The translations under genes were made by a program, and so were the position numbers. Shown here one piece after another: positions 2,916 to 8,867 of a stretch of DNA of 47,129 nt (the first letter of the stretch is position 1; each line of letters starts with the position of its first letter). The stretch covers positions 1 to 47,129 of the forward strand of contig JAPLXD010000011.1 in assembly GCA_026396255.1 (NCBI GenBank). Reading direction: 5' to 3'. The notes beneath the pieces are model-generated. The model had not been told where the DNA came from, did no database searches, and was given only the letters and a program-made list of their open reading frames with translations. The DNA comes from Candidatus Moraniibacteriota bacterium (GTDB taxonomy: Bacteria; Patescibacteriota; Minisyncoccia; Moranbacterales; UBA11712).

Positions 2916-3260
2916 TTGAATAAGGAAAAGTTACTAAATCTGATGAGGCAGCTCGCCGAAGCCCGCGGCGAGGCAGAAATCAAGGACATAGATAAGCAGA
3001 TTAAATATCTGCTCGGCAAGGACATGGGGCCGATTTACAAGAGGAAAGACAAGCTCAACTGCCACGCGGCTCTGGATTTTCTCAAAGCCGCGGAGAAAAG
3101 TTTTTCGGCACTGGCGGGGGATTTGGGAGCAACAGCTGAGAATCTGGACGCAAAGGACACCAGACAGCCCGTACTCTATTTCTTGCAAGCGATGGCAGAG
3201 CGTTTTGCAGGAGAAGCAAAGGAGGCGCACGATACTATCGATAAGATAAACAGATTCTAG
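2916..3260 (+). CDS. Hypothetical helical protein (TTG start)
   Basis: 114-aa ORF with a strong SD (aaaggaggga) 6-8 nt upstream of TTG 2916, followed by a clean terminator. No recognisable family. Confidence 0.5.
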   Translation: MNKEKLLNLMRQLAEARGEAEIKDIDKQIKYLLGKDMGPIYKRKDKLNCHAALDFLKAAEKSFSALAGDLGATAENLDAKDTRQPVLYFLQAMAERFAGEAKEAHDTIDKINRF

Positions 3261-3285
3261 GCGCTAAGTCTAGAACCTATAACTA

Positions 3286-3310
3286 GGACCCAGAACAGCG
3301 GGTCCTTTTT
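3286..3310 (+). terminator. Intrinsic terminator
   Basis: ggaccc-agaacagc-gggtcc followed by ttttt. Confidence 0.7.
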
Positions 3311-3369
3311 GATTTTTTGGGGAAAATGTATTAGCATAAAAATACTAAATAAGCTTAAAAAGAAACACT

Positions 3370-3825
3370 ATGATCGAAGGTGTGAAAATAAAGCAAATAA
3401 GAAGAAACTCCGATGATCGCGGATTTTTTTGCGAGGTCATCAAATTCGGGGAAGATACTTTTTGTGAAGTGAAACAAACGAGCTACACGGAGACATATCC
3501 GGGCGTGATCAAGGCTTTTCACTGGCACAAAAAGCAGATTGATGTCTGGTTTCCGGTCAAAGGGAATATGCAGATTGTTCTTCATGATATGCGCGAAGAT
3601 TCGCCGACCAAAGGGGAGACTCAGGTGATATATGGAGGAGAAAACAATCCGGTCCAGGTTTTTATCCCGATCGGCGTGGCGCACGGGTATCGCGTTCTTG
3701 GGAATGTACCAGCGACGCTTTTTTATCACACGAGCGAAGCCTATGATCCGGCTAATCCAGATGAAGAAAGAATTCCTTTCGATGATCCAGAGATTGGATT
3801 TGATTGGACTACGAAAAATAAATAA
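3370..3825 (+). CDS. rfbC: dTDP-4-dehydrorhamnose 3,5-epimerase (short cupin form)
   Basis: RmlC-like motifs: DDRGFF, KQTSYT, IKAFHWHKKQIDVWFPVKGNMQIVLHDMREDSPTKGE, IPIGVAHGY, and YDPANPDEERIPFDDPEIGFDW. Sits in an rfb gene cluster. Confidence 0.8.
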   Translation: MIEGVKIKQIRRNSDDRGFFCEVIKFGEDTFCEVKQTSYTETYPGVIKAFHWHKKQIDVWFPVKGNMQIVLHDMREDSPTKGETQVIYGGENNPVQVFIPIGVAHGYRVLGNVPATLFYHTSEAYDPANPDEERIPFDDPEIGFDWTTKNK

Positions 3826-6607: not shown

Positions 6608-7468
6608 ATGAAGATCAAAAAAGCCATCATTGCCGTTGCCGGATCCGGAACCAGATTTTTGCCGGTGACAAAGGCGATGCCCAAAGAAATGCTTCCGATT
6701 GTCGACAAGCCGATCATCCAGTTGGTTGTGGAAGAACTGGTCGAAGCGGGGATTGAAGATATCATCCTTGTCACGAAATGGGACAAGAAGCCCTTGGAAG
6801 ATCACTTTGACCATTCTTGGGCGCTTGAAAATGAGCTGGAGCAAGCCGGAAAAACGGAAAGACTGGAGGCGGTGAGGAGAGTGGCGGATATGGCCAATTT
6901 CATTTATGTTCGCCAAAAAGGGCCGTATGGGAACGGTACACCCGTGCTTTCGGCTGCCAGTCTTGTGGATGACGAACCTTTTGTTTTTGTCTGGGGCGAC
7001 GACCTTGTGAAGTCGAAAGTTTCTTTCACGAAACAGATGGTGGAAGATTTTGAAAAAAACGGCCAACCAATGATCGGCGTGCAAAAAGTTGCAAAAGAAG
7101 ATGTCGTGAGATATGGAATCGTGAAACTGCGCGAAGGGACGAACGAAATTGAGGATATAATCGAGAAACCGTCGATCGAAGAGGCACCGTCACAGCTGGC
7201 CGATTTTGGGCGGATGATTTTGAATCAGGAAATTATTGATGTCTTGAAAGATACTGCGATTGGAAAAGGAAACGAGCTTTGGATCACGGATGCGATCAAA
7301 AAATATGTCCAAAATGGCGGCAAATTTCTGGCAAAAGAAATTCAGGATGGCGAATGGCTCACAACAGGCGATCCTCTCAATTATCTCAAAGCTCTTCTCA
7401 AATACGCTGCAGACAGGAAGGACATCGGCCAAGAATTGAAAGAATACACGCAGAAATTGTTTTGCTGA
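6608..7468 (+). CDS. galU: UTP--glucose-1-phosphate uridylyltransferase
   Basis: KAIIAVAGSGTRFLPVTKAMPKEMLPIVDKPIIQ, VWGDDL, EKP. Length 286 aa. Confidence 0.88.
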   Translation: MKIKKAIIAVAGSGTRFLPVTKAMPKEMLPIVDKPIIQLVVEELVEAGIEDIILVTKWDKKPLEDHFDHSWALENELEQAGKTERLEAVRRVADMANFIYVRQKGPYGNGTPVLSAASLVDDEPFVFVWGDDLVKSKVSFTKQMVEDFEKNGQPMIGVQKVAKEDVVRYGIVKLREGTNEIEDIIEKPSIEEAPSQLADFGRMILNQEIIDVLKDTAIGKGNELWITDAIKKYVQNGGKFLAKEIQDGEWLTTGDPLNYLKALLKYAADRKDIGQELKEYTQKLFC

Positions 7469-7480
7469 TATATTTTAAAT

Positions 7481-7510
7481 AAAAAAAGGCCTTGCACACA
7501 GGGCAAGGCC
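7481..7510 (-). terminator. Intrinsic terminator of the minus-strand RNA
   Basis: On the minus strand, ggccttgc-cctgtgt-gcaaggcc is followed by ttttttt. On the plus strand no T-run follows, so it does not look like the galU terminator. Confidence 0.7.
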
Positions 7511-7736
7511 ATAGGGGTGATAGCGCTACCGCACTAATTCAGGAGAGTGCCTAGAGCTTCGATTACTTTAGTTCATCGGCTATAGCATTTGGTTTGTTGC
7601 TTTAAAGCCGCAGACTTAGCTCTTAGTCTGCGGCTTCTCCCTCTCGTCTCTCCAGCCACACTGGGCCGCGTTAATCAAACAACTTTGCCGCTCCTTCGAC
7701 GCTGTTGGTAATTGAGAGGCTTTCGCACTACCACTT
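7481..7736 (-). ncRNA. Orphan structured RNA gene of unidentified class (~250 nt)
   Basis: There is no ORF on either strand across the ~285-bp gap. A minus-strand consensus promoter lies immediately upstream. A 10-bp closing helix pairs GUGGUAGUGC (7734-7725) with GCGCUAUCAC (7526-7517). An internal perfect 10-bp hairpin spans 7634-7607. A stem plus U7 terminator lies at 7510-7481. Confidence 0.6.
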
Positions 7737-7743
7737 GATAAAA

Positions 7744-7771
7744 AGTATACTACAATGAAAATTGCTGTCAA
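7744..7771 (-). promoter_or_regulatory. Sigma-70-type promoter for the orphan RNA
   Basis: The minus strand reads TTGACA-16 nt-TATACT. The predicted start is around 7736-7737, 2-3 nt before the closing helix. The promoter overlaps the first codons of the divergent glycosyltransferase gene. Confidence 0.6.
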
Positions 7772-8867
7772 TGCCGCTGATTTGGATCATTCTCGGATCG
7801 ACGGCACGCGGATATATATCCAGAATCTGCTCAGGAATTTCGGCCATTTGAATAAAAATGACCGATTTTTGATATATCACAAAAGCAAATTCAACCCGCA
7901 GCTCAGATTTCCGATTTTTGAAAATTATGAAATCATCCAAAAGCCGTTTCCGTTTTGGTGGACGCAGACGCGGTTCGCGTGGGAAATGCTGCGCACCAAG
8001 CCGGATATTCTCTTCATGCCGATGCATTCCCTTCCATATTTGCGATCGAAAAAAATCAAAACCGTCGTCACGATCCACGATCTCGCTTTCAAATTTTTCC
8101 CTGACCATTTCCCCAAAAAAGATTTGCGCAGACTGAACTTTTTCACGGATCATGCCGTCGAAAACGCAGACAAGTTGATTACGATATCAAATTCGACCAA
8201 AAACGATCTCCTGAAAATTTATCCGAAAATAAACGCAGATAAGATAAAAGTCATCTATCATGGATATGACAAAGGGTTATTTAACAAGAATATATCTCGA
8301 GAACAAATATTAAAAATAAATACAAAATACAAAATACAAAATACAAAATACATAATTTTCGTCGGTACTATCCAGCCCCGCAAAAATATCGAAACATTGC
8401 TCGAAGCTTTTGAAATATTGAGAAAAAAAGAGAAATATAAAGATTTGGGACTCGTGATTGCTGGCTGTTCCGGCTGGCTGGCGGAAAATATTGTCGCAAA
8501 AATAAAAAAAACTCCGGGTGCGCTGATGACCGGAAAATTTGAGACCGAGGATTTGCCGGCGCTCATTGCCGGGGCGGAAGTTTTTGTTTTGCCCTCGCTC
8601 TATGAAGGATTTGGTTTGCCCGCTCTCGAAGCGATGGCATGCGGCACGCCCGTAGCTGTGGCCGACAATTCGAGTTTGTATGAAGTCGTTGAAGATGCCG
8701 GTCTTCTTTTTGATCCAAATTCAGGTCAAAAAATAGCCGATGCATTGCTCGAAATCCTGGAAAATGAAAAAATGCGAAACAGCTTGCGCGAAAAAGGGCT
8801 CGAGAGAGCCGAATATTTTTCCTGGGAGAAGTGCGCGAAAGAAACGCTGGAGTGGATAGAAATGTAG
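7755..8867 (+). CDS. Glycosyltransferase, GT4 (GT-B, RfaG-like)
   Basis: FVGTIQPRKN, VFVLPSLYEGFGLPALEAMACGTPVAVADNSSLYEVV (E-x7-E region). Confidence 0.85.
   Translation: MKIAVNAADLDHSRIDGTRIYIQNLLRNFGHLNKNDRFLIYHKSKFNPQLRFPIFENYEIIQKPFPFWWTQTRFAWEMLRTKPDILFMPMHSLPYLRSKKIKTVVTIHDLAFKFFPDHFPKKDLRRLNFFTDHAVENADKLITISNSTKNDLLKIYPKINADKIKVIYHGYDKGLFNKNISREQILKINTKYKIQNTKYIIFVGTIQPRKNIETLLEAFEILRKKEKYKDLGLVIAGCSGWLAENIVAKIKKTPGALMTGKFETEDLPALIAGAEVFVLPSLYEGFGLPALEAMACGTPVAVADNSSLYEVVEDAGLLFDPNSGQKIADALLEILENEKMRNSLREKGLERAEYFSWEKCAKETLEWIEM
8321..8355 (+). repeat. Heptanucleotide tandem repeat (TACAAAA)x4 plus one imperfect unit inside the glycosyltransferase CDS
   Basis: Perfect units at 8321-8327, 8328-8334, 8335-8341 and 8342-8348, then tacataa. 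Encodes NTKYKIQNTKY in the inter-domain linker. Confidence 0.9.

Follow-up and report, generated by a model that had tools for sequence, protein, structure and literature searches.

A stand-alone RNA gene family of Moranbacteria and other Patescibacteria that resembles a reduced version of the multi-helix junction closed by H36 in 23S rRNA domain II

Introduction

The levels of ribosomal proteins are classically balanced by short ribosomal RNA (rRNA) look-alikes located in the proteins' own messenger RNAs (mRNAs). The subject of this work is a stand-alone RNA gene encoded on the minus strand between galU and a glycosyltransferase gene (GT4) of a Candidatus Moraniibacteriota bacterium, which lies in a stretch of 47,129 nucleotides (contig JAPLXD010000011.1 of assembly GCA_026396255.1; the whole stretch is hereafter called the window). 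It belongs to a family that is apparently undescribed and sporadic in the candidate phyla radiation (CPR, or Patescibacteria), where it occurs in at least two orders, and which, on comparison of the sequences, reads as a miniature of the multi-helix junction closed by helix H36 in domain II of 23S rRNA.

The closest described systems concern the ribosomal protein bL20. Its C-terminal domain binds the junction between H40 and H41 (with a dissociation constant of 6 nM on isolated 23S rRNA), and the protein also binds mRNA look-alikes of this junction, repressing its own operon (PMC1888825; PMC1865079). Within the ribosome, H40 and H41 are bound by bL20, and H41 and the H41/H42 junction by uL13 (PMC13351717). 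The bL20 operators and leaders, i.e., the two sites of the Escherichia coli rpmI-rplT operon and the Bacillus infC leader (RF00558), likewise imitate the H40-H41 junction off the ribosome (PMC1888825; PMC1865079); unlike the family described here, which is a stand-alone five-helix sub-domain unlinked to rplT, they act in cis within the mRNA of the L20 operon and comprise the two-helix junction only.

On the mechanism proposed below, the family would also be akin to 6S RNA and to CsrB/RsmZ (which act on CsrA) in being a stable, strongly transcribed mimic RNA that titrates a protein. However, it is related to them neither in sequence nor in fold, the target that it imitates is rRNA, and its presumed ligands are, by prediction, ribosomal proteins. 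In the literature, with subscription journals mostly outside our coverage, we found rRNA mimicry in cis in the leaders of ribosomal protein mRNAs, and neither a trans-acting stand-alone mimic nor an RNA of this kind in CPR bacteria.

Results

The 286-bp gap between galU (NTP_transferase; 6608-7468, plus strand) and GT4 (7755-8867, plus strand) holds a complete minus-strand transcription unit, on which galU converges and from which GT4 diverges. Its sigma-70-type promoter (7771-7744; -35 TTGACA at 7771-7766, 16-nt spacer, -10 TATACT at 7749-7744) scores 11 out of 12 and is the top promoter-like site in 7000-8300; the same layout is present in the relatives G002, G005, and G006 (G and L numbers are our handles for genomes and loci). 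The predicted RNA starts at ~7737-7735, and its body (7514-7737, minus strand) runs to just beyond the 3' strand of a 10-bp closing helix (7734-7725 with 7526-7517), giving a length of ~224 nt, or ~257 nt when the intrinsic terminator is included. The latter (7510-7481, minus strand) consists of a GC-rich 8-bp stem with a 7-nt loop (7510-7488) followed by U7, and its stem covaries in G005 and G006. Since the plus strand has no T run after the stem, and since the G-U pairs of the closing helix form on the minus strand only, both elements work only on the minus strand. Furthermore, the minus-strand fold beats its own shuffles (z = -3.05).

An earlier reading of the window, made without database searches (hereafter, the sequence-only reading), had proposed at this site a structured RNA that is transcribed on its own, stands alone, and pairs its 5' end with its 3' end, and the promoter, closing helix, terminator, and conserved covarying fold all bear it out. 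The unit is neither a leader nor a riboswitch, as had also been argued, given its own terminator and the lack of any downstream gene on its strand, galU and GT4 both being encoded on the plus strand. Two details needed correction. An internal hairpin described as 10 bp long is present, but measures 13 pairs over 7636-7605; and the gap, said to be free of open reading frames (ORFs), contains TTG-started frames of 40 (7589-7711, plus strand) and 51 amino acids (7616-7771, minus strand). The region changes by compensatory base-pair swaps, insertions, and deletions, unlike coding sequence. As for the suggestion of transcriptional interference, the promoter does overlap GT4, with the -35 hexamer lying opposite codons 4-6, but a general role was not sustained, as the overlap is confined to one genome family; interference would be at most a side effect, since homologues elsewhere sit in unrelated contexts.

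Four lake-water metatranscriptome runs of one study contain part of the window, and three of them gave contigs when placed on 7100-8100, a range that takes in parts of both flanking genes; the fourth (X13) gave no contig, which is no evidence of absence. One contig (run X10) covered 7514-7714 at a depth of 17, and two others (X11 and X12) covered 7597-7726 and 7593-7728, all at 100% identity; none lay on galU or GT4 within that range. The latter two, from poly(A)-type libraries, run into non-templated A-rich tails at 7597 and 7593, on the minus-strand 3' side and 8-12 nt past the 13-bp hairpin, which fits a minus-strand RNA of a CPR bacterium whose decay intermediates are tailed at their 3' ends. 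This expression evidence is modest and comes from one study; it agrees with the predicted unit and strand. In brief, the gap holds a real gene, encoded on the minus strand, for a non-coding RNA that is separately transcribed and expressed.

Sixteen further homologues were collected, for a total of 17 sequences, 12 of the additions being from genomes (G002, G005, G006, G130, G125, G089, G219, G300, G380, G315, G344, and G385) and four from metagenome loci (L027, L028, L031, and L032). BLAST and a first covariance model (R1), which matches 7514-7737 of the window at 185.6 bits, gave full-length homologues in G002 (same genus), G005 and G006 (two other genera), and G130 (another family). Pattern scans of genome and metagenome collections yielded L027, L031, and L032, together with the more distant L025 and L028; record titles put this group in Moranbacteria/Parcubacteria, within the CPR. 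R1 had been built from four close relatives and proved too narrow (5 of 151 genomes), and it was replaced by a model of the core (R2), which added G125 and G089 from the same order, G219 from a phylum-wide sample, and G380, G315, G344, and G385 from the order of L025. Three samples of genomes were covered, and once false hits had been removed, true R2 matches remained in 7 of 151, 1 of 150, and 5 of 121 of them, respectively. Among the matches discarded, those in G021 (L042 and L044) were repeats of a AAGCGAAGCTTT-type palindrome, that in G391 (L084) fell within a coding region, and that in G096 (L043) was a real 23S gene, which led to the rRNA likeness described below. The intergenic palindromic repeats of G021 have the form AAAGCGAAGCTTT(T/A)GG and lie at 1500-1600 of L042 and 1500-1580 of L044.

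The family shares a fold in which a closing helix (P1) and four further helices (P2-P5) surround one junction. Pairing in P3 and P4 reaches 95% when counted on the MAFFT alignment of the core (A4), against 20-58% for slid partner columns, and four pairs of P4 are changed on both sides (e.g., CUAG/CUAG, CCGA/UCGG, CCAA/UUGG, and CACA/UGUG). Across 16 sequences, pairing amounts to 97.5% over the five junction-proximal positions of P1, each of which shows 3-5 types of pair, and to 96.9% over the first four pairs of P5, with covariation. P2 is 98% paired over five pairs in 11 sequences, in forms as different as CUCUC/GAGAG, CUCCC/GGGAG, CAUCUU/AAGAUG, and GCUAC/GUGGC; in slid registers, pairing of P1, P2, and P5 falls to 8-64%, although it counts against these in-register figures that the boundaries of the three helices were set by eye, which favours them, and more weight should be given to the diversity of the pairs themselves. 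All five helices covary across two orders. The covariation anticipated for related genomes is thus found, with helices conserved through compensatory changes.

This fold has a counterpart in the ribosome. A weak match of R2 in the 23S gene of G096 gave the lead, and the family was then seen to match the 23S genes of G130 and G219 element by element and in the same order. The corresponding junction spans ~812-1195 in E. coli numbering, and the helix names used here follow the standard 23S diagram. The correspondence, which is based on the sequences themselves, is set out below with the positions of each part in the window, all on the minus strand.

P1, whose strands lie at 7725-7734 (GUGGUAGUGC) and 7517-7526 (GCGCUAUCAC), is read as H36, its 5' and 3' strands standing for those of the ribosomal helix. 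The strand that follows, J1/2 (GAAAGC, 7719-7724), is kept as GAA(A/U/C)G in most family members and takes the place of the strand after H36, which reads GAAAUA in both 23S genes compared (G130 and G219). P2, formed by CUCUC (7714-7718) and GAGAG (7648-7652), is equated with the base of H38, and the insert enclosed by it (7653-7713) stands in the place of the long H38 arm and differs between lineages. In J2/3 (ACGAGA, 7642-7647), AC and GAGA represent the strands on either side of H39, which is itself deleted. P3 (7630-7641), a GGG-loop-CCC element in the family and degenerate in the window (GGG ... CGC), is taken as the equivalent of H40, and it is followed by J3/4 (AGA, 7627-7629), which has the very letters of the strand linking H40 to H41, in the region recognised by bL20 (PMC1888825; PMC1865079).

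P4, which with its AGCU-AA-GGU and ACC-GA-AGCU strands is identical in letters to the ribosomal counterpart, is read as H41 plus the first pairs of H42. In the window, its 5' side comprises the H41-like strand (CUAAGAGCU), the AA loop half, and GUC in place of the family GGU (7613-7626), and its 3' side comprises AUC in place of ACC, the GA loop half, and the second H41-like strand (AGCUCUAG) (7551-7563). Between them, the V4 stub (7564-7612) occupies the place of H42-H44, the GTPase-associated centre. The P5 hairpin (7531-7550) is taken as the H45 equivalent, and J5/1 (GGUA, 7527-7530) is identical to the strand that joins H45 to the 3' strand of H36. With its closing helix flanked by GAAAGC on the 5' side and GGUA on the 3' side, and with a unit of its own, the RNA of the window bears the sign of the family, which is shared by 16 sequences, with GAA(A/U/C)G and GGUA-like flanks.

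Overall, AGA, AA/GA, GGU/ACC, and GGUA are identical to the 23S sequences of G130 and G219, and GAAAGC is near-identical. Furthermore, a profile hidden Markov model (HMM) of the family picks both H41 strands, in order, in the 23S gene of G130, the 5' block with E = 2e-4 and the 3' block as the next-best match, and R2 aligns at H40-H41 of the 23S genes of G096 and G130. The family thereby reproduces the H40-H41 interhelical junction (GGG-loop-CCC, AGA, and an H41-like helix), which is altered and masked in the window copy. On these grounds, the family appears to be a miniature of the H36-closed junction, with the same order of helices and the same or nearly the same junction strands. In contrast to domain II, it is encoded as a separate gene of ~190-330 nt, with its own promoter and terminator and outside the rRNA operon; H37 and H39 are missing, H38 and H42-H44 are reduced to short lineage-specific stubs, except in G219 (V4 measures 28-56 nt in the ten members measured, vs. 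146 nt in real 23S rRNA), and the helix sequences differ from those of the carrier's own 23S gene.

A larger member occurs in G219, and its H43-H44 part, the L11-binding GTPase-associated centre, is almost unchanged. Indeed, the Rfam model of the large-subunit (LSU) rRNA matches it over model positions 1092-1149 at 60.3 bits, above the cut-off; the same model found no match at ten other family loci, nor in the window region at E up to 10.

G130 and G219 carry complete 23S genes (2598 and 2613 bits, over the full model length) with H36-H46 intact, so that, in these two carriers, the RNA is not a fragment of a split rRNA. Moreover, in G219 both H41 and H45 differ between the RNA and its own 23S gene, which argues for an old, separately evolving copy and not a recent duplicate. 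Since all members read, except that of G219, are without the factor-binding centre (H42-H44) and a full-length H38, they could not replace a 23S segment. No 23S gene is assembled in the window's own metagenome-assembled genome (MAG). As a side observation, the 23S match of G002 (L053, C21) breaks at model position ~2046, with >1.1 kb unmatched before the break, and those of G125 (L046-L048, C3) break at ~2001/2046 and at 1853/1854, which suggests insertions inside these 23S genes. Insertions within 23S genes are known for CPR rRNA.

The copy in the window is atypical of the family. The 3' strand of P3 reads CGC and not CCC, GUC/AUC replaces GGU/ACC, and V4 carries an additional insert. A perfect 13-bp hairpin (7605-7636, minus strand) has arisen through coordinated substitutions and uses the 3' strand of P3, the AGA strand, and the 5' strand of P4; as it is absent from all other members, the hairpin noticed in the sequence-only reading is a lineage-specific feature that departs from the family. 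Of all the close relatives, the window copy has the lowest scores (R2, 62 bits; R1, 185.6 bits), and it retains AGA, the 8-bp H41 helix, and AA/GA, beside the degenerate P3 and the competing hairpin. This copy may have been rewired and be switch-like, or may be decaying, though it is still transcribed.

The presence of the gene varies between close relatives. A GT4 orthologue occurs in 18 of 18 relatives of the family, and the galU-GT4 gap measures only 12-15 bp in G001, G003, and G004, of the same genus, vs. 271-286 bp in carriers. Because close relatives are without the RNA at the same site, the gene is dispensable; it is an accessory gene that has come or gone at a single site in the genus, and, for the same reason, not a housekeeping RNA.

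Elsewhere, sigma-70-like hexamers were seen by eye 5-8 nt before P1 in every member read, and a terminator hairpin at the 3' end in almost all of them. The neighbours vary: the gene lies between galU and GT4, after a formate-tetrahydrofolate ligase gene, upstream of tuf (G125), or between rpsJ and rplC (L025 and L028, with a separate promoter-like site between the RNA and rplC), and no neighbouring gene conserved across members was found. Three exact-pattern scans of viral contigs gave no copy, although divergent copies could escape such scans. In G315 (L081), the RNA gene is preceded on its own strand by a tRNA gene (1169-1240). In L025, two short ORFs (~2960-3430, minus strand), HicB-like and HicA-like by eye, are located between rpsJ and the RNA gene and are flanked by two near-identical rpsJ terminator hairpins, as if inserted with duplication.

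Comparison with the known RNA classes was made against Rfam 15. At gathering scores, the whole window gave two tRNAs only, and a scan of 7400-7850, of the kind recommended in the sequence-only reading for 7450-7800, assigned no family, with sub-threshold matches only. Among these, PyrR reached 23.8 bits against a gathering score of 54, and Esr41, two microRNA families, and tsr24 stayed far below their thresholds; all were treated as chance, driven by the terminator or the hairpin. The L20 leader (RF00558) had no match in 7400-7850, and a cis-acting L20 leader was discarded, considering the RNA's own promoter and terminator, the lack of a downstream gene, and the location of rplT on contig C42. 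RNase P RNA (C59:10817-11283, 163 bits) and transfer-messenger RNA (C42:9104-9576, 115 bits) are both encoded elsewhere in the genome and were therefore rejected as identities.

No 6S RNA (RF00013) was found in the window at the gathering score, in 7400-7850 at E up to 10, or genome-wide. For the signal recognition particle (SRP), neither RF00169 nor RF01854 matched in 7400-7850 or in the genome itself, and RF00169 was without match in 24 genomes (19 of the family and five more of the order). On the protein side, the Ffh M domain (PF02978) was found neither in this genome nor in five relatives, the SRP54-type GTPase domain (PF00448) gave weak P-loop matches only (≤29 bits) across 81 genomes of the order, and the DTAGR motif is absent from the six frames of this 96%-complete genome, in which neither FtsY nor Ffh was found. 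An SRP RNA would accordingly have no partner here, since the genome is without an SRP54-type GTPase and an Ffh M domain. Of the two identities left by the sequence-only reading, a divergent 6S or SRP RNA was not supported, with no Rfam match, no Ffh, and a branched five-helix fold in place of a rod with a central bubble; the other, an undescribed RNA, agrees with the same lack of an Rfam match and with the family of homologues that share the covarying fold. In its own right, the SRP pathway is seemingly absent from this CPR order (this genome and 80 others), and we found no paper reporting such an absence.

Discussion

What every lineage retains of the RNA corresponds to the sites at which bL20 and uL13, two proteins of early ribosome assembly, are reported to bind. 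A strongly transcribed free RNA with such a site should capture unassembled bL20, and probably uL13. A free RNA of this kind would hold the unassembled proteins away from the ribosome and would act as a decoy, buffer, or store, shifting the amount of free protein available for ribosome assembly and autoregulation; RNAs of the G219 type would additionally capture uL11. We infer both the partners and the effect, and consider the case for an off-ribosome decoy or buffer of bL20 and uL13 to be about evenly balanced. As a broader and more tentative proposal, the ultra-small CPR bacteria may possess several rRNA sub-domains in the form of trimmed, free-standing copies, of which this family would be the copy of the bL20/uL13 site, serving in trans as a sponge or as an assembly seed.

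Several observations weigh against a decoy for bL20 and uL13. The genomic contexts do not point to either protein, and the L20 gene is single-copy and lies on another contig or far away; no extra bL20 gene was found in carriers, with one PF00453 match per genome and none in the incomplete G001 and G002. A rare and dispensable RNA would be an odd regulator of universal proteins, and the conservation of the junction nucleotides could reflect the needs of the tertiary fold of the RNA itself, or a different ligand. Furthermore, the window copy, with its altered P3 and GGU/ACC, may not present the H40-H41 site: enforcing P4 costs +12.2 kcal/mol over the minimum-energy fold in the window, compared with 0-3.5 kcal/mol in six other members. 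Finally, the metatranscriptome contigs are unstranded, and the strand of expression depends on the two A-rich tails, with one contig each.

As the main alternative, the same 23S-junction mimic could have another partner or role. It could be a decoy for an agent that attacks or recognises this rRNA region or pre-50S particles (a phage product, a toxin, a nuclease, or a factor for modification or assembly), or else a scaffold by which assembly is seeded or chaperoned. A patchy distribution, in which members of one genus have or lack the gene at the same position, is what conflict or niche genes typically show, and the G219 member keeps the L11/thiostrepton centre nearly unchanged, so that, at least in this member, the set of ligands would be wider than bL20 and uL13. 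However, no defence or toxin genes are consistently adjacent, the three pattern scans of viral contigs were without a copy, and what all members retain is precisely what bL20 and uL13 bind in the ribosome; we regard this explanation as rather unlikely. That the RNA is a decaying, functionless relic of a partial 23S duplication, still transcribed, would agree with its rarity, with its dispensability in close relatives, and with the departure of the window copy from the family fold. Yet compensatory changes preserve all five helices across two orders, a promoter accompanies every member read and a terminator nearly all, the same helices have been trimmed in every lineage while the junction strands stay identical or nearly so to 23S, the differences in H41 and H45 of G219 show that members did not arise by recent copying of the 23S gene of their genome, and the substitutions that make the 13-bp hairpin of the window are coordinated and not random. 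A relic is improbable in the face of these features.

A purely local role, by antisense action, interference, or regulation of neighbours (GT4 and galU here, ribosomal protein or tuf operons elsewhere), would be in line with a promoter that overlaps the start of GT4, with an RNA that converges on galU, and with the three members that adjoin translation genes (L025, L028, and G125). Nevertheless, neighbours differ between lineages while the core of the RNA is conserved, the RNA has its own terminator, L025 and L028 have a separate promoter-like site before rplC, and antisense action leaves the conserved rRNA-like junction nucleotides unexplained, for which reasons we give this role only a small probability. 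The idea of a split 23S rRNA, in which the RNA would be built into the ribosome to supply a segment that the main gene lacks, draws on its match to a closed 23S sub-domain and on the lack of an assembled 23S gene in its own MAG; it is refuted for G130 and G219, which have the RNA plus an intact 23S gene, and, with H42-H44 and a full H38 wanting in all members read but that of G219 and the RNA itself wanting in same-genus relatives, it is very improbable for the family. Least credible of all would be a divergent 6S or SRP RNA: the paired 5' and 3' ends and the fact that neither RNA was found elsewhere in the genome would suit it, but Ffh and FtsY, the helix-8 motif, and any trace of the RNA in most close relatives are lacking, and its junction is branched.

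If the RNA is indeed a decoy for bL20 and uL13, it would represent a trans-acting version of the mimicry known from ribosomal protein mRNAs, aimed at ribosome assembly proteins in the manner of 6S RNA and CsrB. On the broader proposal of a set of rRNA sub-domain copies, there would be a layer of control over ribosome biogenesis, or of protection from ribosome-targeting agents, undescribed in any organism. What is new here is a family of 17 sequences, covariation in five helices, a polymorphic presence within a genus, and support from RNA sequencing (RNA-seq). The genes are unannotated and have no Rfam match, so a covariance model would fill a gap in the annotation of CPR genomes. Furthermore, the family offers a compact, naturally selected RNA (190-260 nt) in which the folding of the domain II junction and the recruitment of bL20 and uL13 could be studied.

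In a host with a minimal genome, each retained gene needs a reason, and carriers and non-carriers of the same genus provide a natural comparison. At this site, GalU proteins share 94-96% identity within the genus and the adjoining GT4 proteins 76-81%, and it is precisely between these two genes that the RNA gene occurs in some genomes and is lacking in others.

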